Of a DNA stretch of 64,000 nt, positions 6,076 to 20,454 are shown piece by piece. A model generated the notes under the pieces. That model ran no database searches and was not told where the DNA came from. It saw only the letters and a program-made list of their open reading frames with translations. This stretch comes from Giardia intestinalis. Its lineage: Eukaryota. The position numbers and the translations under genes were made by a program. Positions within the stretch are counted from its first letter, which is position 1; each line of letters opens with the position of its first letter. Location of the stretch: NCBI GenBank assembly GCA_000002435.2, contig CM018793.1; one strand, written 5' to 3'.

Positions 6076-8138
6076 GGTTGTGAATCGCCCTCATACGTCC
6101 CCGAGAATAAATATTTAACAGCCCTCTTCAGGCGCTTGAGGAACCCTTGTGGGGGGCCAGGTGAGTCTCGGGAGGAATGGAAATGCTCATTCTCATACTG
6201 AAGCCTGCTATATGCATTCAGGCTTCGGCACACTGTACTCTGAGAACGCGGGGTAATTCTTCTGCTCCCGGGAGTCTCTGGACAGTTTGGTGTGCGGGGA
6301 GAAATAGCCTCAGTTTCATCCTCTGAGTTGTCGAGGCCCATGATACTGAAGTTTTTACTAGAACGACCCGATGTTCTGGCCTTTAGCTCAGCTACCTCAA
6401 CCTGCAGGGCCGAGATGCTTCTCTTGTTGCTACTTCTTTCCTCATCGATCTTAGAGCTGATCTGGTTACATCTCTGCTCGAGGGCCTTCAGGCATGTTCT
6501 ACTGTTCTCCTTAAACTTTTCAAAGTCTCCCGATATTCCTCTGATGTTCTTTTGAACAGAGCGAAGGTTGTACCCCAGAGCAGTCACCTGAGACTCGTTT
6601 TGCTCGAGTAATTGTCTAGTGGCCTCCCACAACTCATCTTTACTGGGCTTCCCTTCTGCTTCTCCACGAGGCAGATTGAGCACCTCACCCAACATACCAA
6701 CGAGCTCCTCAATTCGGTGCTCCTGATTGGATAAAAAATCAGAGATAGTGTCTATGCGCTGTGAAAGTCGCAGGATCGTTTCTTGAATCTCGTACTGACT
6801 AGTTGTGTCATGCTGATAAATACTGTTTTTATTCTTTGTTCTAATTGCATACCCTGGACCAGTTGATCTACCAGGTGCATCAGTGACCGGCTTTGGGGCA
6901 GTTTGGAGATTGGTCACTGACATGGCCGTTGAGTGTACGCGCGACTCACTGTTGAGTGGTGGCTTTTTCAACTGAGAAGTGAGGCTAGTTTCTAAAGAAT
7001 TGTTATAGAACTCCATCAGCTCTTTTAGCTCGCTATCGAATGTGTTGCCCGCCACCTTTGTGTGTTCGAGCTCTTCAATGACCATATGACTATCCCGCAG
7101 TTCGTTGGCGACCGGCGCAGGTGTCATTGCAGGAGTTTTCAAGGAGTTGTTGATAGTACAATCGGAAGGTATCTTCCTAGTAGCAGCTATCATGGATGCG
7201 CTCCCTGACAGCCTAAAGCGCTGTTGGTGGAATCGTGTAATCTCGTCAACCACCTTTGTAAGCCCTAGTGCCCTGGCAAGCTCGAGGGGTGTCTGACCCT
7301 GTTTGTTCTGCAGGGCCTCCTCTGCTTCTATCAGAATGATAGCAGATTCTGCATGATAATTCTGGATTGCTAGTAGGAGTGCTGTGTTGTGGTTATTGTC
7401 CCGATGTCCCGACTCATAGGCTAGTAGTGCTTCAGTTGTCTGTGTACGACCAGAGTAGGCAGCATACATTAGTGCTGTGTGACCTTGGGCATCCTGCAAA
7501 CCTGCCTCTACAGAAATGAGGAGTTTCACCATCTCGACATGCCCGGCCGCGGCCGCAATCATCAACGCTGATCGCCCTGTGACGCTCCTCATGCCTGCCT
7601 CTTGTGAGACGAGCATTTTCCCGCATTGCCACTTGCCGGTCTGTGCAGCAAACATGAGGGCTGTCATCCCACTGTTATCCGTCAAGGATGCCTCCTTGTG
7701 TCGCGCCATATCGACAAGCTCAGTCCACCCTAGGCGGCTCGCTATCATCAGAGCGGTTGCACCGTCCTTTCCTTGCATTCCCGCCTCCGCCTCCAAAAGG
7801 AGCCGAAAGCAGCCGATACTCCGCCTATATACCGAGCTCATCAGAGCTGTCTGTCCACCAGCGTCCTGCATGCACCTTTCGTACGGAAGGAGAAAGGATA
7901 CGATGGCCTCTTGGTTGTTGTAGGCAGCAAACATAAGGGCTGTCTCTCCTGTGTTCACCTGCATTCGCTGCTCCTTTTCTACCAGCAGCCTTACACACTC
8001 AAGATGCCCAGCGCTGGCGGCGAACATCAGGGCAGTCTGGCCGTTTGCGTCGGCTAGCCCCACATAAAGGTGCAAAAGCGCACGCACATCGGCCTCCCTA
8101 CCCTCAAAGGCAGCGACCATCAGCTCGGTTTTACTCAT
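6072..8138 (-). CDS. ankyrin-repeat protein, Giardia 'Protein 21.1'-like, with C-terminal coiled coil
   Basis: 688 aa. There are about 12 tandem ankyrin repeats with the TALM signature (GQTALMFAASAGH, GETALMFAAYNN, GMTALMFAAQTG, GHTALMYAAYSG), followed by a coiled-coil/Ser-rich tail. ATG confirmed at 8138..8136 (complement). Confidence 0.85.
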   Translation of the reverse strand: MSKTELMVAAFEGREADVRALLHLYVGLADANGQTALMFAASAGHLECVRLLVEKEQRMQVNTGETALMFAAYNNQEAIVSFLLPYERCMQDAGGQTALMSSVYRRSIGCFRLLLEAEAGMQGKDGATALMIASRLGWTELVDMARHKEASLTDNSGMTALMFAAQTGKWQCGKMLVSQEAGMRSVTGRSALMIAAAAGHVEMVKLLISVEAGLQDAQGHTALMYAAYSGRTQTTEALLAYESGHRDNNHNTALLLAIQNYHAESAIILIEAEEALQNKQGQTPLELARALGLTKVVDEITRFHQQRFRLSGSASMIAATRKIPSDCTINNSLKTPAMTPAPVANELRDSHMVIEELEHTKVAGNTFDSELKELMEFYNNSLETSLTSQLKKPPLNSESRVHSTAMSVTNLQTAPKPVTDAPGRSTGPGYAIRTKNKNSIYQHDTTSQYEIQETILRLSQRIDTISDFLSNQEHRIEELVGMLGEVLNLPRGEAEGKPSKDELWEATRQLLEQNESQVTALGYNLRSVQKNIRGISGDFEKFKENSRTCLKALEQRCNQISSKIDEERSSNKRSISALQVEVAELKARTSGRSSKNFSIMGLDNSEDETEAISPRTPNCPETPGSRRITPRSQSTVCRSLNAYSRLQYENEHFHSSRDSPGPPQGFLKRLKRAVKYLFSGTYEGDSQP

Positions 8139-10808: not shown

Positions 10809-11504
10809 CTAAGCCGTAGAGAATATGTTGGAGTGCATAGATGGAGCAAATATCAAGAACAGGCGCCGGAACCACACGTCTTGCGACGCGTACGTCATTA
10901 GAAACAGGGATCTCAGCTGGCAGGGGGCTCTTGAGGTTATTCTCACCTGATCCATCCTAACCTTGTAGAGCCACGGCATAAGCCACGCAAGCCGAGGAGG
11001 TGTTTGCAGGAAGTAGCACTTTGCACGAATCCGGCCTGCCAGCACCGCCTTCCCTATCTGGCAATGGTTTATGTGGCCTGTGACACCTTCGCTGTCAAAG
11101 GTGTAAACGGTAATGGCATCACCCATTGCCATGTCCATTCCGTACAAGATTATTTGTAGAAGTCGTTCGCTCCACGGTGTATAGGGATCATCGAGAAGAG
11201 GCGTCCGAAGATAGTGAGTCCTGATGGCTGAGAACCTTCTTGATAAGGATGCGAGCTCGGAGGTACGGAGAGCCCCCTGCCTTGGGTCTTGTCTGCTTCC
11301 TCCTTGGAGCTCTGCAGATTCTCTCCAGCCGCCAGATGTCAAGCAGAGAATGAGCGTGGGAACCTCATGCTCCTCCATGTGCTGCAGTAGAGGCCCGAAG
11401 AAGAGCAGCTCATCATCGGGGTGCGCTGTCAGGACAATCACCCGAGTTCCGGAGTACTGCTCTAGCTGAGACACAACACTGAACAGTAAGTTAGTAAATG
11501 TCAC
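10809..11504 (-). CDS. N-acetylglucosaminyl-phosphatidylinositol de-N-acetylase (PIG-L / LmbE family), GPI-anchor biosynthesis
   Basis: 'RVIVLTAHPDDELLFFGP' (HPDDE metal-binding motif) and 'GVTGHINH' (HxxH motif) are diagnostic of the PIG-L/LmbE family. The 5' end is unresolved: the codon at 11504 is GTG and there is no in-frame ATG upstream of the HPDDE motif before a stop (see findings). Confidence 0.75.
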   Translation of the reverse strand: MTFTNLLFSVVSQLEQYSGTRVIVLTAHPDDELLFFGPLLQHMEEHEVPTLILCLTSGGWRESAELQGGSRQDPRQGALRTSELASLSRRFSAIRTHYLRTPLLDDPYTPWSERLLQIILYGMDMAMGDAITVYTFDSEGVTGHINHCQIGKAVLAGRIRAKCYFLQTPPRLAWLMPWLYKVRMDQVRITSRAPCQLRSLFLMTYASQDVWFRRLFLIFAPSMHSNIFSTA

Positions 11505-11560
11505 GATCTTTTGTTTAAGACGCTTTACTCGACCACGTAATAGACGTCTACATTCAGAAA

Positions 11561-11875
11561 ATGTTCTGGCTGCTTATTTTTGCAGTGGCCGTGCTTGCAT
11601 ACAGACCGTCAGATAGGAAAAGGGACACGTATTCAGCTGTTCTACGCAGCCCCAAGCCATGCGGCTTGAAAGACTACGAGGGGCTTCTAACCTTCATGAA
11701 GTCTCCCGAGCGCGACCTGTACGATCTTACTATCGAGTACGGCTATACCACGCCTGTGCTGCTATTCTTAGACGTCAATGAACAGGAACTAGGCCGTGTT
11801 TACATCGACAAGAGCCACACGCCTGTGGCAATTCAGGCGTTGCTGGATGAAGCTGATATCCCGGTTCGCAGGTAA
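11561..11875 (+). CDS. hypothetical small secreted protein (N-terminal signal-peptide-like segment)
   Basis: 104 aa, true ATG at 11561. 'MFWLLIFAVAVLAYRP' is signal-peptide-like. It fills the gap between PIG-L and the zinc-finger gene. No recognised domain. Confidence 0.4.
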   Translation: MFWLLIFAVAVLAYRPSDRKRDTYSAVLRSPKPCGLKDYEGLLTFMKSPERDLYDLTIEYGYTTPVLLFLDVNEQELGRVYIDKSHTPVAIQALLDEADIPVRR

Positions 11876-12383: not shown

Positions 12384-14240
12384 ATGTGTGCTATGGCTTC
12401 AAAGCAGGAGGACCTTCTTCCTGTGCTGATTCCGTCGTCATCGGGCATGGCAACCGAGAATGGGGAATACGCCATCACACTGGCTGCTGAACTGGAGTTT
12501 CTTCCTGGAGTTCTCGCTGTACTCCCGTACGAGCATCACTATCGCAACCGAGACGGAGATTCGGCCCTTCACATACTTGCTCGAAAAGGGATTGTCGACA
12601 TCATTCCTCAGTGTGCACAGTACTTGGAGCGAGCAAGGGATGCTACTGGACGTATTCCTATCGACGTTGCAGCAGAGCATAACAGTGTTGCATTTCTCAA
12701 GGCCTCGATAGAGAATAAGCTGGGCTTGACGGCGGACGATGTTTTGCGCACGTTCTGTGCGGCACGACATGCAGGTAGACAAGAGGCCATGGATTGTCTT
12801 CGTGAATACATTTTCGTGGAGCCTGTTGAATGCCTCTGCTATCGTTGTAGCAACGTTCTGGACTTTCCTTCTAATAGTTCCAGCAGGCTAGGGACACCAA
12901 TAGTATCGAGATACAGCTCCATATGTCGCACGCCTTTGTCGTTCAAGTCCATTCGAAGCCTGGGGTCTCTTTCTGCAGAAAGGAGGCCAAGCTTGCGCAG
13001 TCCCTGTCTTTCCCCGCGGCTATCTAATTCAGTGGAGACGACATCCATCGGCATACAGGTTTCTACCGCTTGTCAAAACTGTACTGAAAGTGCACAGATA
13101 TATGAGCAGCAGATTGCTGAGCTAAACGACAGATTGTCAGCCCTGACTGCACAACTAAACACATTTTCTCAAAGATCGCCACAGGTAAGCACGACCCTAC
13201 CTCATTGCACAGAGTCAAATTCTGGTTTTAGTGAAAGGAGACAAAAACAGAGAGACATAGTGGAAGCGGCTGCTCTATCCTTCTCGCCCCTACAAGAAGC
13301 CTCGAAGGCACAAACAAGAGAGCTAATTTCTGTGGTTACGCCAACAGTGAACAGAATCACAGATGACCCGCATCCCAGCGTCCCAAGTAGTCCCTTGCCT
13401 TCTTCCTCTCTATGTTCAAGCCAAGGGTCCAACCCAACAGTCCTCAGATTTTCGGGCTTTCGCGGGATCACCGAACTTGCTCTGTCGAAGGTGGGATCTC
13501 TCAAGAACAGCTCTCCGCATTTAGAGGACATGGGATCCCTGTATGAGGCCCCTGACATGCATACCAATATGACCGACCTTATGCGAGCAGCATGCAGCGG
13601 GAACGTAGGACTTGTGGGAAAGCTTATCGCTACCCAGTCGCGACACCAGACGGAGTCAGGCTACACGGCGCTAATGTTTGCATGCAGAATAGGAAACTTG
13701 GCAGCAGCTAAAATGCTTCTGCCCTACGAAGCAGGGATGCAGACGAAAACAGGATCAACGGCATTGATGGAGGCATGTGCAAGCGGAAGCAAGGAGCTTG
13801 CAACTCTATTGCTCATTGAGGGAGGCATCTATCGTAAGGATGGGTGGTCTGCTCTCATGAGTGCTGCTCGAGCAGGACTTCCCGACATTGTCCGCTGCCT
13901 TCTTCCAGTCGAGAGCGGTAGGGCTACTTTGGGCGGAGTAACCGCCCTTATGAAAGCCGTAGAGCAGGGACACTATTCGTGTATTTCAATGCTCATTCCA
14001 TCGGAAATTCACTTTCGAAGAAAGGATGGGCGAACGGCAATAGACATCGCCCGTGAACTGAATAATACAGGCATAATTGGCCTGTTGGAGGACTACATCA
14101 ACAACCATCCAGTCAGCCTTTCAGATCATCAGACAACAACTGAAAGGGATAGCAACCAGCTGACCAGTAGCGAGATGGAACTCCTTGCAGATATCGATGA
14201 GTATATAATCATGGGTGACGGCGCTTCCGACAAGTGTTAG
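12384..14240 (+). CDS. ankyrin-repeat protein, 'Protein 21.1'-like
   Basis: Many TALM-type repeats (GHTPLMCAMAS, ESGYTALMFACRIG, GSTALMEACASG, GWSALMSAARAG, GVTALMKAVEQG). Track start 12114 is TTG. The first in-frame ATG is 12384, yet ankyrin-like sequence (DDFFRAIRAGDYETVSRLVLQYGACTDANGHTPLM) continues upstream of it, so the true 5' end is uncertain. Confidence 0.75.
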   Translation: MCAMASKQEDLLPVLIPSSSGMATENGEYAITLAAELEFLPGVLAVLPYEHHYRNRDGDSALHILARKGIVDIIPQCAQYLERARDATGRIPIDVAAEHNSVAFLKASIENKLGLTADDVLRTFCAARHAGRQEAMDCLREYIFVEPVECLCYRCSNVLDFPSNSSSRLGTPIVSRYSSICRTPLSFKSIRSLGSLSAERRPSLRSPCLSPRLSNSVETTSIGIQVSTACQNCTESAQIYEQQIAELNDRLSALTAQLNTFSQRSPQVSTTLPHCTESNSGFSERRQKQRDIVEAAALSFSPLQEASKAQTRELISVVTPTVNRITDDPHPSVPSSPLPSSSLCSSQGSNPTVLRFSGFRGITELALSKVGSLKNSSPHLEDMGSLYEAPDMHTNMTDLMRAACSGNVGLVGKLIATQSRHQTESGYTALMFACRIGNLAAAKMLLPYEAGMQTKTGSTALMEACASGSKELATLLLIEGGIYRKDGWSALMSAARAGLPDIVRCLLPVESGRATLGGVTALMKAVEQGHYSCISMLIPSEIHFRRKDGRTAIDIARELNNTGIIGLLEDYINNHPVSLSDHQTTTERDSNQLTSSEMELLADIDEYIIMGDGASDKC

Positions 14241-17200
14241 GTAAACAAAGGCGGAGGCCCCAACTTAGGAATGTCCTTCAGGGACGTTATGATGCTGTCT
14301 AGCGTCTCATTGGAGAGTGCACACGGCACCGGGGTGATTTCTTTTTCGAGACGCTCTTCATGCTCTCCTCTCATAACGGGGGACGATTCTTTGCTGGCAT
14401 GGTGCTTTTCGATCACCTGCTTGACATCTAAGCTCAGGCTGTCCATGAGGGCTACTAACGTGTTAGTGTCAACGCCAGACATTGCAGAACCGAACTCTAT
14501 GGGACGCGTGATGTTCTCTGAGACCCTGACGTCGGAAGAGCCTTCAATGTGGCTCACATCCTTATTCAGTGTATCAAGCTTACCGAGCTCATGGCTGCTC
14601 TTGGATATCTGAATAATCACCGGGGTCTCAGACCCTTCAGATGCGGAAGAAGCGGACAAATTATCTTTATATGACGACAGTTCTGGTGTAACGCTAGTAT
14701 TCGGAGCCTGCCTTTCTGCCAGGCTGGCCGAAATGCACTCAATAAACGTTGATCGCTTTGACGACGGACTCTTTGCAGCTGGTGGGGGTGGAGGAAGGGC
14801 ATGTTTCTTGATTGTTGCGATAGATTTGGGAATGCCTCCCGGGCCTGAAATCGATGAGGCTCGGTGAGATCTTCTATCTGATAAGTGTGCTTTCGCGTCC
14901 TCAACGGTTGCTTCTTCAACTACGGCATTTGGCGTTGCACACGGAACTGGAGTTGAGCCAACCTCAGAGGTACAGGACGAAGAATCATGCGGTTCTGCAG
15001 AGATTTCTGGGTGTGGTCCACGGTTAGAAATGACATTGGTATTAATAATATCATCCAGCTTAAAGGCATCGTCCTCGTGCTGGTCTTGGATTCCAGCCTT
15101 GACGTCATGCACACTTAAAGCGTGCGGTTGTCTGGTGAAAAATTCATCCTCTGCTGTTTCGTAGGTAGATGCGTTGGATTCTGATTTTGGGACATTCAAT
15201 AGCGTAGAGATCAGCCGACTAGGAACCTGCTGGTGCGATGTAATAAGAGAGGGGCTGTGTTTTTCTGTAATCCTCCCGAACTGGCTGCTTGTCTCACCAC
15301 TAGTCTCAGAAAACCGACTTTGATTCTCGTTCTCTTCATGCAATGCTTTTAGTATCTTGCTTGAGTGTCTATAATGATCGGGATTATCAACGCCAATGTT
15401 GCCTTTAACTTTAGTGGACACATATGTGTCAGAGAACTTCCCTGCAGTGAAAACATCATCCACAAGTGAGGATCGAACAGTAACTCCCTGCTCAGTGCCT
15501 GTTACAGTGGGTACTGCGAAGCTGTAATTGCCGTACTTCCTAAGAAAAGCCCTAACTCTCGGAATATATGCGTTGATTGACAGGTTGCTTTCTGCATTTC
15601 CGAGGATAATGTTTTCGAATTTGACGTTAACTTGTAGATATCTAAGATTATTGTCCATGACGAATCCATACCTAAGTGATTCCTGCAGCATCTCAGTGAA
15701 TGCAACTGTTTGCAACGGAGACAGGTTGATTGCCTCCATGTTAATTTCGTGATCTTGCTCTGTTACCGAGCCTGGCGATGGATGCTGTACTGGCGAGGAA
15801 CAAGAATTGAAACTGGTTAGTGACGTCTCTGCAAGCACACCGGTACCTCGTCGCGGCTGCATAAGTGTAAGCATCAGTGCCACAAGGGCAACAGAGGACA
15901 TACGGGAGACTTCTGCATTTGTTTCTGAGAAGTAGTATGCAGTAAGCTTCCCTTTGTACGGAATCGCAGAAACGGCCTGCTCCCCTTCGGTGTCTTTGGT
16001 GTACACCCCAATGTATCCGTTTTGCTCCGGAAACCGCTCGTAGTCTGTATCAAATGTCGATGTCTCTGGATTGAATAGTATTTTGGAGCCAAGGAGGCCG
16101 AAGAACATGAGGCGTAGCTCGTAAAGACTCTCAAGTACTGACTCACAGATCTTTATTGCCACTTTGCGGTGAATGATGTGGAGGATGCTGTCACTGTCAT
16201 CCTTTGTATTGTCGATAAAACGAAGCGTTCTGTCGTTGTCTTCCCGCGCTTTTAGGGTGGCTTGAATAGCTAATTCTAAGGTGTTGTTCATGTATGACGG
16301 AAACAGCTCGGCAACAAATGCAGAAGAAAACGGAATTGCTCCTGTTTCCGTAAGGTCAGGGGAGTAAAGAATCTCCGGCACACGGACGTTGTAATCGCAC
16401 CTAATCACCTCCAGGATCCAAGCCGTTATGTCTAGTAGGTCGGCGAGCTGAAGCCTGAAGTTAGGAAGGGAGATGCCAAAGTCGGCCTTGAGGGTCTGTA
16501 TTTGTGAAAACTTGGAGGAGACCATGAAAACAGTTGGGTTTTTGGTATGCGCCATCTGCACTTGTTGCATAGCGGTTTTTTCGCAAGTGTTGTGTGCGTA
16601 ACGTAAGCAGTAAGCAGCATTGATGCCAAATCCCTTGTAAGAAAGGGTATCTCTTTTCCCCATAAATACCATGCCAACTCCGTCAGAAAGCTTGTCAGCC
16701 TGCAGCATATGAGAAATAAGCTTGCATTTGATCTTATTCGAATGCAATCTAGATACCTGTGCCAGAGAGGTAGAGGTCGACAGGATACTATAAGATTGTG
16801 AGGTGCACGTCTCACTTTTGGAGTTTGCATACGTGAGGTCAGAGTCCAGAGATCTGGCGATAATCAAGGCGTACCTCAATAAGTCTGTTCCTCGCTTCTG
16901 TGTTCCGGCGAGAGAAGCGTTCTGAGATGCAATCGTGACCAGGCTACTCCCATAACAATCACACAGTTGCATCATGAGAGATGCAAAGTTTATTTCTAGT
17001 GGCACCAAACCGGTTCCAATCATCGGGTCAAAATGCTGTGCAAAGGAGCCTGTTGTTTTCAGAAGGCCTGTGTCTGTGGCCTGTGTGCCGTGCACTCTCT
17101 TTAAGTTGTCTATTTCACGCAATCGTCTGACATCGTTGGCAACATTTACGAGCAGATTGTGGGGAAGGTCCACCAGCTTAGTTGTTTGATTAGTCACATA

Positions 17201-19918
17201 GAAGTCGCAGAAGGAATGAACGGACTTGACGAGAATCTCGTGGGCTAGAAGCGAGTTTAGTTGTTGGATGGTGTCGTCAATGGTGATCCTTAATGTGCTG
17301 TCGCACTGGTCAATCTTATGGAATACCTTAGATAGAGTATTATTGTCCCCGGTAGCCAAGAGGATATAGGGATTACAAAGGATAATAAGAAGAGCGCGAC
17401 AAAAAGTCAGCTTGTCCATGGCACAGAGAGACGTAAAGTCCGTCTGCCCCCTACTCGCCGACGCCATCAGCTCTAAGTCAAGGGCTTCGGACAAATCGAT
17501 TATGTAACGAGAAATTGCGTCTGTAACAGTACTCGCGTTAAGAGGCTCATTAGACCGTATATCGTGAAGCAATAACACGACATGGGTAATCAGAAACTCC
17601 CGTGTATTGCGGCAGAGAAGAGTCACGTTTGGCGAATTGATAGACTGCAAAAGAAGCAGGACGTCTTGACGACGATACAGAGAATAGATTGTGTTGGGCG
17701 CGACGTATGTCTCATACTCTTGCATTAGTTTGTAATGACTATCTTCCGAATACTGGTCAGTAACTTCAAAAAGGCTGACTAGGCAATCGAGAAACGTGAG
17801 GTACGTGCATGCGCTTACTAAGCTTAGCTCCTTGTCAGTAGAGAACAGCTTTAGCGATGCACTGCTTGAGTACAGGGCCAGAAGGTTGGCGTTCATGCGT
17901 GAAGTGCGCTGGCTTTGGGCCAAGGAACTTGAGGCGGCAGCTTTCGTCTTGAATGATGCGGAATGCCCGAGACTCGTCACCGGATCTTCGTGTGCACACT
18001 GTGCTGCATAGAGAGCAGTGGACATAGCATTATAGCCAGAACTAAGCAAGATGATGTCGCTGGAAATTGGTCGCGGAACCGTAGAAGTGCCCTCCGACAG
18101 GGTCCCTGAAAAGCTGGGCTTGATGTCGATGAAAATATACACGTCCCGGAGAAAATCTAGTGAATTGGACATGAAACAATTGGTCAGCTTTGTTAAGATA
18201 ACCTCTTCCAATGGAGCAGCATCAGAAGAAACGTACTCTGCAACAATCTGAAGTAGTGATTGAAAGTTGGAATAGTCTAGAGTGTTTCCAACGGCAATGC
18301 AGAATATGCCAAACGTTGCTGCCGCGTAGACGGGAATGGTCGGGAAATATGTAACTGGTGTTATTATGTTCTGCACCAGGGGAATAAAGAATGTGGCCAT
18401 AAGCGTCTTGCGTCTTCCTGGCAGCCCGGAGCTGGAGGACAGCTTCATGGTCTGTGTGTTAGATGCCTCAAACTGCAGAGCATTGTACTCCAGAAGCGCT
18501 GCATCGATCAGTGTCTGCCTAAAGAACGAGGGGGAATACACTAAAAACAAGAGTATAATGCGCAAGTATGCGCCTACTATTTCATTATAATCATTCATGG
18601 GCATACTGCTGCAAGATTCCAAGCCTGCAGTCTTCGTGTCCAGATAGGAATAGAAGAACGAGGCTAAAGACCGAAACATTCGAACACTGTAAATAACGGA
18701 GAGGTAATCTACGATCGCCTGCTCTTCCTGAACCGAGAAAAGTGGTAGACGGTTTTCGAGAGGGCCATGGCTCTCCAAAATGGAGAATGGCACCCGCGTA
18801 TATGCTTCTATCCGCCTCTCTCCGCAGTGCAGGAAGAATATGCTAAGCAGCCTGACCGTTATAACATCTGGTTGGTAGATGATGGAGCTGTCGCCAGCCA
18901 TTGTACGCGAAGTGTCCGCAGATAGGTGTAGACTGAATGGAGACCGTGTGGATGCAGCAGACAAAAACGCTTTGGTGTCTCTGCCACCCAACAGGTTCGT
19001 CACAAGGTAGTCGTCCATAACTAGTCGGGTAAATATCTTGTCCTGGTGTCGAAGAAGAGCGTTGTATTGGGCCAGCGCCTTATCTACTTGTTCGCCGCTA
19101 TCGAGAATCGCCTTTGCAATGGATTGCTTGAAGGTATGGAGCCGCTCCAATAAATCACTGAGCAATCCCAAGGTTGCTAAACGTGTGCTAGCAGAGCTGG
19201 AAACAGGACACTGTGCAGGAGGAGACAAGACTCTTTCAAACAAAAAGTCAGGCACCTGCGTCGAAAGAAAGAGCAAGAACTCGTCTGTTGAAAAGCTAGT
19301 CGTTGTATAGAGAGCCAAAATCTCTAACATCTCGTTCAGTGCGTCAGGGTTACCGGTGCATGTATGCAAATACGTCGTGAGGAGAGAAGCCGATTCATAC
19401 GTCTCTCTGAATAGGCAAACAATCCCAAAGCGGACCTGAACAAAGTGCCGTAGGAACTGAACTGCGTAGTTTGTCAGCTGGGTACTGCCTGCCCGCGGCT
19501 CAGACATGGCCTTTGCAAGCTCCTCCATGCCACCGAGAGCCACAAAGCTCTTCAAAAGACATGTCTGGACCCTAACATAGGAGGTGCTTTCCCCACTGGA
19601 AATACCCTTAAGGAGCTGTGTCATGGTTCCTAGAGCGAGACATTTGAACCGAACCGTCGTCTCGTTAATGGGCTTTAAATCTATTCTGAAAAGATCCAAC
19701 AAGAGGGCGACCAGCCCAGACGAGATTAGTACATCAAGCCTATCACTTAATGGGATTGCGTTTGAGGCAGCGACAGCGTCTTGCAAAAGAGACTGACAGA
19801 TACTGCTTGAGGTATCGATGAACGCCGTCGAGCTGTACGTCCCCGAGAGGACCTCCTTTACTTGTGCGACAATGATGGGAATGGCCATCTTCCACTTAAT
19901 TATGGGATTTGGCGCCAT
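14237..19918 (-). CDS. large hypothetical protein (~1894 aa), predominantly alpha-helical/ARM-HEAT-like with Ser-rich low-complexity C-terminal region
   Basis: Continuous ORF. Track start 19960 is TTG. The first ATG is 19918..19916 (complement), giving MAPNPIIKWKMAIPIIV..., preceded by the AT-rich 'catttaaaatc'. The C-terminal third is Ser/Pro-rich (PPPPPAAKSPSS). No catalytic motifs recognised. Confidence 0.6.
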   Translation of the reverse strand: MAPNPIIKWKMAIPIIVAQVKEVLSGTYSSTAFIDTSSSICQSLLQDAVAASNAIPLSDRLDVLISSGLVALLLDLFRIDLKPINETTVRFKCLALGTMTQLLKGISSGESTSYVRVQTCLLKSFVALGGMEELAKAMSEPRAGSTQLTNYAVQFLRHFVQVRFGIVCLFRETYESASLLTTYLHTCTGNPDALNEMLEILALYTTTSFSTDEFLLFLSTQVPDFLFERVLSPPAQCPVSSSASTRLATLGLLSDLLERLHTFKQSIAKAILDSGEQVDKALAQYNALLRHQDKIFTRLVMDDYLVTNLLGGRDTKAFLSAASTRSPFSLHLSADTSRTMAGDSSIIYQPDVITVRLLSIFFLHCGERRIEAYTRVPFSILESHGPLENRLPLFSVQEEQAIVDYLSVIYSVRMFRSLASFFYSYLDTKTAGLESCSSMPMNDYNEIVGAYLRIILLFLVYSPSFFRQTLIDAALLEYNALQFEASNTQTMKLSSSSGLPGRRKTLMATFFIPLVQNIITPVTYFPTIPVYAAATFGIFCIAVGNTLDYSNFQSLLQIVAEYVSSDAAPLEEVILTKLTNCFMSNSLDFLRDVYIFIDIKPSFSGTLSEGTSTVPRPISSDIILLSSGYNAMSTALYAAQCAHEDPVTSLGHSASFKTKAAASSSLAQSQRTSRMNANLLALYSSSASLKLFSTDKELSLVSACTYLTFLDCLVSLFEVTDQYSEDSHYKLMQEYETYVAPNTIYSLYRRQDVLLLLQSINSPNVTLLCRNTREFLITHVVLLLHDIRSNEPLNASTVTDAISRYIIDLSEALDLELMASASRGQTDFTSLCAMDKLTFCRALLIILCNPYILLATGDNNTLSKVFHKIDQCDSTLRITIDDTIQQLNSLLAHEILVKSVHSFCDFYVTNQTTKLVDLPHNLLVNVANDVRRLREIDNLKRVHGTQATDTGLLKTTGSFAQHFDPMIGTGLVPLEINFASLMMQLCDCYGSSLVTIASQNASLAGTQKRGTDLLRYALIIARSLDSDLTYANSKSETCTSQSYSILSTSTSLAQVSRLHSNKIKCKLISHMLQADKLSDGVGMVFMGKRDTLSYKGFGINAAYCLRYAHNTCEKTAMQQVQMAHTKNPTVFMVSSKFSQIQTLKADFGISLPNFRLQLADLLDITAWILEVIRCDYNVRVPEILYSPDLTETGAIPFSSAFVAELFPSYMNNTLELAIQATLKAREDNDRTLRFIDNTKDDSDSILHIIHRKVAIKICESVLESLYELRLMFFGLLGSKILFNPETSTFDTDYERFPEQNGYIGVYTKDTEGEQAVSAIPYKGKLTAYYFSETNAEVSRMSSVALVALMLTLMQPRRGTGVLAETSLTSFNSCSSPVQHPSPGSVTEQDHEINMEAINLSPLQTVAFTEMLQESLRYGFVMDNNLRYLQVNVKFENIILGNAESNLSINAYIPRVRAFLRKYGNYSFAVPTVTGTEQGVTVRSSLVDDVFTAGKFSDTYVSTKVKGNIGVDNPDHYRHSSKILKALHEENENQSRFSETSGETSSQFGRITEKHSPSLITSHQQVPSRLISTLLNVPKSESNASTYETAEDEFFTRQPHALSVHDVKAGIQDQHEDDAFKLDDIINTNVISNRGPHPEISAEPHDSSSCTSEVGSTPVPCATPNAVVEEATVEDAKAHLSDRRSHRASSISGPGGIPKSIATIKKHALPPPPPAAKSPSSKRSTFIECISASLAERQAPNTSVTPELSSYKDNLSASSASEGSETPVIIQISKSSHELGKLDTLNKDVSHIEGSSDVRVSENITRPIEFGSAMSGVDTNTLVALMDSLSLDVKQVIEKHHASKESSPVMRGEHEERLEKEITPVPCALSNETLDSIITSLKDIPKLGPPPLFT

Positions 19919-20454
19919 GCATGATTTTAAATGCAAATATGAACTGAAAATTGGAAGCAAGGGGCTTGGCTCGTAGGATCTTACCTTTCACACGTTTGTA
20001 TGGTAATGTTCTACTTACTTATTGACACTCCACATACAGCTGGGCTCTGCACTAACACTCTGAGTAATAAGTAAGAACGAAAATAGTGCAACAATAAGTT
20101 TATTTCAATCATGCAGTTTTGTCCAATGTAATCAATCTTGAACTACTTCAGCTTTCTCACCACTAAAGACCACTAAAGGCTAGTTGTTTCTGCTGAGGCC
20201 TTCCCCGAACGACAGTTTGTTTGTGCGTTTACAAGCAACATAAGCGCCAGCTAGAGTTTAAGGAAGCTTCCAAATTGCAGTGATCATCTTGCTAGTGCAT
20301 GAACTGATGAGTGTGAGGACGCGTTCACACACCCCGTAGAATAGGAACATGCTTATCTCTGAGGCGGAATCCCTATAGTCGACACAGCGGTCGGGACTGT
20401 AGTGCTATCTGGGATGCAAATTCTATATGGTCTAAACTTATTATACTCATAGTG

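Follow-up and report, generated by a model that had tools for sequence, protein, structure and literature searches.

How could Giardia intestinalis assemblage A make a complete PIG-L, the enzyme of the second step of GPI-anchor synthesis, when the reading frame that encodes its catalytic motif holds no ATG upstream of that motif? The question concerns WB, the reference strain of a major human parasite, whose PIG-L is annotated without the metal-binding motif, and it was raised by a sequence-only reading of the window, by which I mean the whole stretch of 64,000 nucleotides from contig CM018793.1 (assembly GCA_000002435.2). The coding region has the following features, with positions counted along the window.

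10809..11504, minus strand: open reading frame of PIG-L (GlcNAc-PI de-N-acetylase), 231 codons plus stop, first codon GTG, taken from the list of open reading frames
10811-10809, minus strand: stop codon of this frame, from direct reading of the sequence
11064..11075, minus strand: HxxH of the LmbE/PIG-L active site (His144, His147), invariant in the homologue alignment
11376..11378, minus strand: first in-frame ATG, Met43 (MEEHEV), 3' of AHPDDE and start of the 189-aa NCBI annotation of WB
11409..11426, minus strand: AHPDDE metal-binding and catalytic motif, codons 27-32, from an alignment of 11 homologues, with HPDDE at 11423-11409
11444-11409, minus strand: codons for RVIVLTAHPDDE, from direct reading of the sequence
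within codons 2-42, minus strand: encoded peptide stretch TFTNLLFSVVSQLEQYSGTR, next to the proposed initiator methionine

The product of 10809-11504 has the marks of a PIG-L/LmbE de-N-acetylase with, according to its sequence and its model, an LmbE-type Rossmann-like fold. It matches Pfam family PF02585 over residues 24-155 (E 1.2e-15; 58.6 bits, with a gathering score of 28.2), and since this domain starts 19 codons 5' of the first ATG, the conserved sequence ahead of that ATG exceeds a chance finding. In the alignment of 11 homologues the residues T26, A27, H28, P29, D30, D31 and E32 are invariant, as are H144 and H147. The motif, which had been placed at 11400-11445 on the minus strand, is real, but its exact place is 11444-11409. 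The AF2 model of the 231-aa protein (pLDDT 87.2, pTM 0.88) predicts a helix at residues 3-17, β1 at 22-26, the AHPDDE loop and a helix at 32-45, and when this model is compared with the PDB by Foldseek, the best 42 matches all belong to the LmbE family; the family's matching structures include MshB (1q74, E 7e-8), BshB and diacetylchitobiose deacetylase. A search of the PDB sequences with the single protein sequence matched nothing, but the alignment profile does match the solved MshB and diacetylchitobiose deacetylase, and it is the AHPDDE region that drives the match. By analogy with MshB, in which AHPDDE and HxxH furnish three zinc ligands and a general base, I assume that two of these ligands and the base come from the AHPDDE loop, and the Giardia protein would presumably have the enzyme activity of its family.

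With the eukaryotic PIG-L/GPI12 proteins (PF02585, LmbE superfamily) the Giardia protein has in common the domain, the AHPDDE motif, the HxxH and the fold, and its C-terminal SQxxWFRxL region is conserved as it is in these enzymes. Other eukaryotic homologues (P0007, P0009) carry an N-terminal transmembrane segment, which all Giardia versions lack, and a short helix at residues 3-17 is predicted in its stead. A further difference from the known PIG-L/GPI12 genes lies in the start codon, as the ancestral one has become GTG in assemblages A and E. The region around this codon is made up as follows.

11490..11495, minus strand: ACTAAC, codons Thr4-Asn5, 9 nt before an AG at 11480-11479
11502..11504, minus strand: GTG where, according to orthologue alignments, the ancestral ATG very likely stood; proposed near-cognate initiation codon
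11505..11516, minus strand: A-rich element AAACAAAAGATC, abutting the start codon; putative initiator-like promoter element and very short leader
11548..11553, minus strand: out-of-frame ATG followed at once by TAG, within the 56-nt divergent intergenic region
11561..11875, plus strand: divergent 104-aa gene from the list of open reading frames, head to head with PIG-L and 56 nt apart
11574..11576, minus strand: in-frame TAA, the 5' limit of the PIG-L frame, from direct reading of the sequence

Direct reading bears out the layout on which the question rests. The GTG at 11504 is the first codon of the listed frame, and the frame is closed by the TAA at 11576-11574, with 23 sense codons and not a single ATG between the two. 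The first in-frame ATG, codon 43 at 11378-11376, indeed follows HPDDE, and a start at this codon would delete the motif.

One answer would be that the reference annotation is correct, that translation starts at AUG43 and that the 189-aa protein is functional. The NCBI WB model, which is derived from GiardiaDB (XP_037902348/KAE8305857), has this very extent, beginning at Met43 and thus without AHPDDE, and a first-AUG rule is reported for Giardia, at least where PMC4949329 summarises Li & Wang 2004. I nevertheless consider this answer highly improbable. In the model Met43 lies inside the helix 32-45, and a protein begun there would have neither the N-terminal helix nor the core strand β1 nor the AHPDDE loop, and would retain little of α1. 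Furthermore, codon 43 is not conserved, being Met in A, Val (GTG) in E and Leu in B and Y, and the strongest constraint in the gene is found in codons 2-42, all of which such a start would leave untranslated.

Other gene models of the locus differ considerably in length. Proteins called on many contigs of G. intestinalis assemblage A, to which the WB-like window belongs, share 100% identity with the 231-aa translation; the DHA2 model ESU39190 has 231 aa, is marked partial and has Val as its first residue, and the assemblage-B models ESU40622 and KWX11328 have 231 aa with Met as the first residue. In P15 the PIG-L annotation is only 109 aa long. Comparison of these sequences indicates that the 189-aa annotation of WB and the 109-aa annotation of P15 are truncated gene models, both of which need correcting. 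PIG-L calls of 107 aa in two assemblage-A contigs were considered as evidence of pseudogenisation and rejected: in one of them (L019) the DNA is 100% identical to the window and the call reflects a choice of the gene caller, and in the other (L018) the call coincides with the loss of 1 nt from a G5 run within the ORF.

The PIG-L orthologues are full-length in every Giardia lineage examined. The comparison covered assemblage A, with AII-like isolates (L020-L025) beside the AI-like ones, assemblage B (GS_B, L011, and BAH15c1, L081), assemblage E (P15, L026, which was reached via the neighbouring 336-aa gene), lineage X (ERR3333378, L013), lineage Y (ERR3333382 and SRR17450160/58, L014-L016) and G. 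muris (L017); lineages X and Y probably correspond to assemblages C and D of dogs. At the codon homologous to 11504, B, X and Y carry ATG and AI, AII and E carry GTG; the PIG-L of G. muris has a plain ATG at its own first codon. The element AAACAAAAGATC directly upstream does not differ among A, E and B, and X and Y have nearly the same sequence. All 18 assemblage-A contigs, which come from different sequencing runs and comprise AI-like and AII-like isolates, read CAAAAGATC-GTG, and the whole 5' region is the same in AI and AII. In P15 the homologous codon is likewise GTG, in identical context.

These counts bear on the idea that an error of sequencing or assembly, either in the base at 11504 or as an indel between 11500 and 11545, hides a normal ATG. 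Beyond the oddity of the locus itself nothing speaks in its favour, and it is hardly credible in view of a GTG found in 18 contigs from different runs and once more in P15, and of a spacing of 32 nt upstream that equals the spacing in B and X. The sequencing indel that the sequence-only reading had offered as one of its explanations can be dropped on the same grounds. It had also reasoned that an orthologue with an ATG at the equivalent of 11504 would make the GTG a simple SNP. Such an ATG is indeed present in B, X and Y, but the change is more than a trivial SNP, as AI and AII have only GTG at this codon, E has it too, and the frame that it heads is under purifying selection.

The GTG is thus very likely, from the alignments, an inherited substitution that replaced an ancestral ATG. 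As it is also present in P15, the change probably predates the split of A and E (dS 0.64). P15 has, in addition, an in-frame ATG 10 codons upstream, which extends its ORF to 241 aa. This upstream frame rests on an E-specific 2-nt deletion, visible as a spacing of 30 nt against the 32 nt of A, B and X, and further on ATA/ATG and TAA/CAA differences. Because the upstream ATG needs the E-specific deletion, the shared GTG is most simply ancestral to A and E. Most probably, then, a single A-to-G transition turned ATG into GTG in the common ancestor of A and E, and in the simplest history that the sequences allow, E would have gained its upstream ATG later, and A would never have had that ATG in frame.

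A missing AUG could also be supplied from elsewhere, by an unconventional 5' exon joined through cis- or trans-splicing, with ACTAAC and the AG downstream of it as branch site and acceptor. Both elements are present, and a few Giardia genes are known to be cis- or trans-spliced, with introns often near the 5' end and with the signals 5' [G/C]TATGT ... CT[A/G]ACACACAG 3' (PMC10711314). The hexamer had been noted just after the GTG, where it does occur, at 11495-11490, although its distance to the AG is 9 nt rather than 10. All that resembles a Giardia spliceosomal intron is this one CTAAC-like hexamer, close to where the ORF begins. That a canonical cis-intron is unlikely for want of a GTATGT donor has held up, since this motif is absent from the minus strand between 10803 and 12570, and no [G/C]TATGT donor is present on the same strand within 1 kb upstream. 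Neither does CT[A/G]ACACACAG occur nearby, nor a branch/acceptor motif with up to one mismatch near 11480, and the spacing from branch to AG is wrong for a Giardia intron. In addition, the hexamer is not conserved: at its position E has ACCAGT, B has AATAGT, X has ACTGGT and Y has ACTGAT. On this comparison ACTAAC is a pair of assemblage-A-specific codons, lying in a constrained stretch, and not a branch site.

An intron was also sought directly, by setting acceptors after 11480, 11467, 11463 and 11458 against a GTATGC at 11602-11597, and was rejected, as no in-frame exon with an AUG resulted. The AG at 11479 would put exon 2 in phase 2, and a check by hand found no exon 1 to match. Ten short contigs of WB type are colinear with the genome and thus unspliced, though the library type of their runs is uncertain. 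The orthologues of B, X and Y, moreover, begin with a plain ATG exactly at the position of 11504, and this ATG, together with a helix 3-17 that is predicted with confidence, argues that no 5' exon is missing from the gene. I therefore regard a spliced 5' exon as very unlikely, and the unconventional or trans-spliced exon of the sequence-only reading is largely refuted.

The gene may be translated from its GTG or a near neighbour, or it may be on its way to being lost. The substitution patterns bear on both. Between A and E the whole PIG-L gene shows a dN of 0.088 and a dS of 0.64 (dN/dS 0.138), and for codons 2-42, where 13 codons differ synonymously and 2 non-synonymously, dN/dS falls to 0.029. 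Three neighbouring genes with normal ATG starts show A-E ratios of 0.078 (the 104-aa gene), 0.103 and 0.125. AI and AII do not differ by a single non-synonymous change in codons 2-42. Polarised with outgroups, the amino-acid changes divide into 7 for the A branch and 11 for the E branch, which means no acceleration in A. No part of the gene is more constrained than codons 2-42, and over the A-E timescale PIG-L, and its pre-AUG segment especially, behaves as translated, constrained coding sequence.

Alternatively, the locus could be a young pseudogene or a hypomorph. Assemblage A would then have lost its start codon independently of E, recently but before the split of AI and AII, the ORF would be intact only for lack of time, and little or no active PIG-L would be made from this locus. 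Several observations fit such a history. A has no in-frame ATG ahead of the catalytic motif, and E has an upstream ATG of its own, so that the GTG there could have arisen separately and neutrally. Within A, the ratio of non-synonymous to synonymous differences (A1-A2) is 7:5 (w 0.44; the counts are small), somewhat above that of the neighbours (A1-A2 w 0.10-0.31), and one assembly (L018) carries the above-mentioned deletion in the ORF. Neutral simulation gives a probability that the ORF stays open of 0.002 at d=0.32 and 0.09 at d=0.1, but of 0.67 at the AI-AII divergence. Taken by itself, the comparison of AI with AII does not distinguish a functional gene from one that began to decay very recently.

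Nevertheless, I consider this history unlikely. It needs the same A-to-G change twice, amino-acid changes are not in excess on the A branch, and codons 2-42 have remained free of non-synonymous differences between AI and AII, with a dN/dS against E of only 0.03. The elevated ratio within A also loses force next to assemblage B, where similar ratios (5:3, 4:5 and 3:4; w 0.23-0.51) are found with the ATG intact. Neither a stop codon nor a frameshift is present in 17 of the 18 A contigs. Finally, a protein search gave a single Giardia family, and PIG-L is the sole candidate that it found for step 2 of the GPI pathway. The pseudogene that the sequence-only reading had listed stays, with an A-E dN/dS of 0.14 and an ORF intact in 17/18 contigs, as a weaker rival. 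Of the four options listed there, which also included the indel and the unconventional exon, non-AUG initiation is the best supported, with purifying selection acting on the 42 pre-AUG codons.

I thus favour, with a probability of roughly 60%, a functional gene that is translated from GUG, or from an adjacent near-cognate codon, on an mRNA with a short leader. Transcription would start in AAACAAAAGATC directly upstream and leave a leader of a few nucleotides, and the cap-proximal GUG would be decoded by initiator Met-tRNA; alternatively, an in-frame near-cognate codon close by, CTG at codon 7 or GTG at codon 11, could serve as the start. The full 231-residue enzyme would result, although perhaps inefficiently, and initiation at AUG43 might yield an inactive product next to it. 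I infer this start site from what is known of Giardia mRNAs: their 5' UTRs measure about 1-14 nt, and transcription begins within the AT-rich element that adjoins the start codon (PMC3610916, PMC1885649, PMC3792122).

How start codons are selected on the near-leaderless capped mRNAs of Giardia is poorly understood, and secondary sources disagree on scanning. Giardia ribosomes work without it according to PMC3610916, and PMC4949329 gives the above-mentioned first-AUG rule. If ribosomes do scan, many of them may pass the GUG and start at AUG43, and synthesis of the full-length enzyme may then be low. Two arguments can be raised against initiation at GUG. Under the first-AUG rule most ribosomes might start at AUG43, and ATG could have changed to GTG twice, once in A and once in E, in which case the constraint would predate the loss in A.

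The short contigs differ between the two strains. Those of WB type span the whole intergenic region and several genes, and give no indication of the transcription start site. Two short contigs of P15 end 10-18 nt downstream of the GTG, short of the P15 ATG; I presume that they derive from RNA-seq, as the run series fits the RNA-seq study of Franzén. They are a weak hint that P15 may not use its upstream ATG.

Initiation at near-cognate codons is a known phenomenon. GUG is used in NAT1/DAP5/EIF4G2 and a non-AUG codon in Candida albicans P2A (cited in PMC3566956), and UUG and ACG in yeast GRS1 and ALA1 (PMC3306390, PMC3245939). With these genes PIG-L has in common that no AUG precedes an indispensable segment, that a near-cognate codon occupies the expected start and that the extension is constrained. 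However, the known cases mostly depend on long leaders and scanning, and often give alternative isoforms, whereas in PIG-L the proposed start codon replaces the sole ancestral AUG, the leader presumably has a few nucleotides and the organism has no eIF4G. The closest parallel comes from Giardia itself. Gargantini et al. (2012, PMC3566956) found that in the WB DEAH-box helicase GL50803_13200 the N-terminal region has no ATG, while the start is present in GS, and they suggested alternative initiation codons. The WB model of this helicase is truncated at its N-terminus like that of PIG-L; it is a different gene, and PMC3566956 reports no evolutionary or expression test. A literature search for non-AUG or near-cognate initiation and for ribosome profiling in Giardia yielded only this remark on the helicase and the case of the giardiavirus IRES, and a search for Giardia PIG-L found nothing. 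PIG-L would be a new example of a known phenomenon, one not demonstrated before for cellular genes of Giardia.

If true, this reading would be evidence, of an evolutionary kind, that a cellular gene of Giardia depends on non-AUG initiation. A wider proposal can be attached to it, which I put forward only tentatively and hold to be rather doubtful. Cap-proximal initiation without eIF4G might tolerate GUG as the sole start and so sustain an enzyme of the GPI pathway over long periods. A and E would both start at the shared GUG, with the upstream ATG of P15 lying outside the mRNA, and a hidden class of non-AUG genes, annotated as N-terminally truncated or missing, might exist, a class that would open with PIG-L and the helicase GL50803_13200. 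Gene finding that relies on ATG only will truncate or miss such genes. The locus also offers a natural test, as ATG (in B) and GTG (in A and E) stand in otherwise identical sequence context.

For further lineages of the A/E clade I also scanned metagenome contigs with the Giardia PIG-L alignment, which returned 52 loci, all with at most 44% identity and none from Giardia. The divergent 104-aa gene, for its part, is kept at the A, B, E, X and Y loci; it matched no Pfam family, and its product has a hydrophobic N-terminus. The out-of-frame ATG with its immediate TAG, which had been put at about 11543, is present but lies some 10 nt away, at 11553-11548. ATGTAG is kept in A, E, B and Y and reads GTGTAG in X; located 8 nt from the ATG of the 104-aa gene, it probably belongs to a promoter region that the two genes share.

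In the P15 genome (assemblage E), the PIG-L open reading frame starts with an upstream ATG that originated through an E-specific 2-nt deletion together with point changes, and the sole PIG-L annotation in the genome record is a fragment whose first residue is Met123.

L026 (P15 locus) 7305-8030, minus strand: PIG-L open reading frame, 241 aa, ATG-initiated (from the sequence)
L026 7305-7634, minus strand: PIG-L as annotated in the P15 genome record, 109 aa (record annotation)

Two short P15-type contigs, which are probably RNA-seq contigs, both stop short of this upstream ATG. The 5' end of L079 (SRR445168) corresponds to position 7982 of L026, 18 nt downstream of the codon equivalent to the GTG at window 11504, while that of L080 (SRR445167), the first two bases of which (GG) mismatch the genome, lies at about 7990, some 10 nt downstream of the same codon. 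These ends may hint at a PIG-L transcript 5' end close to the GTG.

PIG-L, which occupies window 10809-11504 on the minus strand, is separated from a divergently oriented gene by an intergenic region of 56 nt, which harbours a minimal 'start-stop' on the PIG-L strand.

Window 11548-11553, minus strand: ATG-TAG 'start-stop' (from the sequence; equivalents in L011, L014 and L026, the loci of assemblage B, lineage Y and P15)
Window 11561-11875, plus strand: conserved 104-aa protein gene, head to head with PIG-L (from the sequence)

The 'start-stop' is kept in A, E, B and Y, with GTG-TAG in X. A distance of 8 nt separates it from the ATG that opens the 104-aa gene, and it probably represents promoter or initiator sequence of that gene rather than an upstream open reading frame. 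The 104-aa protein has a hydrophobic N-terminus and matches no Pfam family, and its gene is found opposite PIG-L, head to head, in all G. intestinalis lineages examined, with an A-E dN/dS of 0.078.

While other eukaryotic PIG-L homologues (P0007, P0009, P0006) carry an N-terminal transmembrane anchor, Giardia PIG-L, including that of G. muris, is without one; in its place, residues 1-21 are predicted to contain a short helix (3-17) preceding β1. One assemblage-A assembly (L018, run SRR13990248) has a 1-base deletion in a G5 run within the open reading frame, at window 11277, which could be either a homopolymer error or a genuine frameshift allele.

A search for splice-like motifs returned an exact match.

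Window 18452-18462, minus strand: Giardia fused branch/3' splice motif CTAACACACAG (motif search)

A GTATGC is present about 145 nt upstream. The match is probably due to chance, as it sits within an unbroken 1907-codon open reading frame (14237-19960, minus strand). Allowing one mismatch at most, the fused motif occurs 6 times in the window (2.7 expected). GTATGT occurs 36 times in the window, both strands taken together, against 20.7 expected, a count reached in none of 100 dinucleotide-preserving shuffles; this excess is possibly a codon or dinucleotide-context effect.
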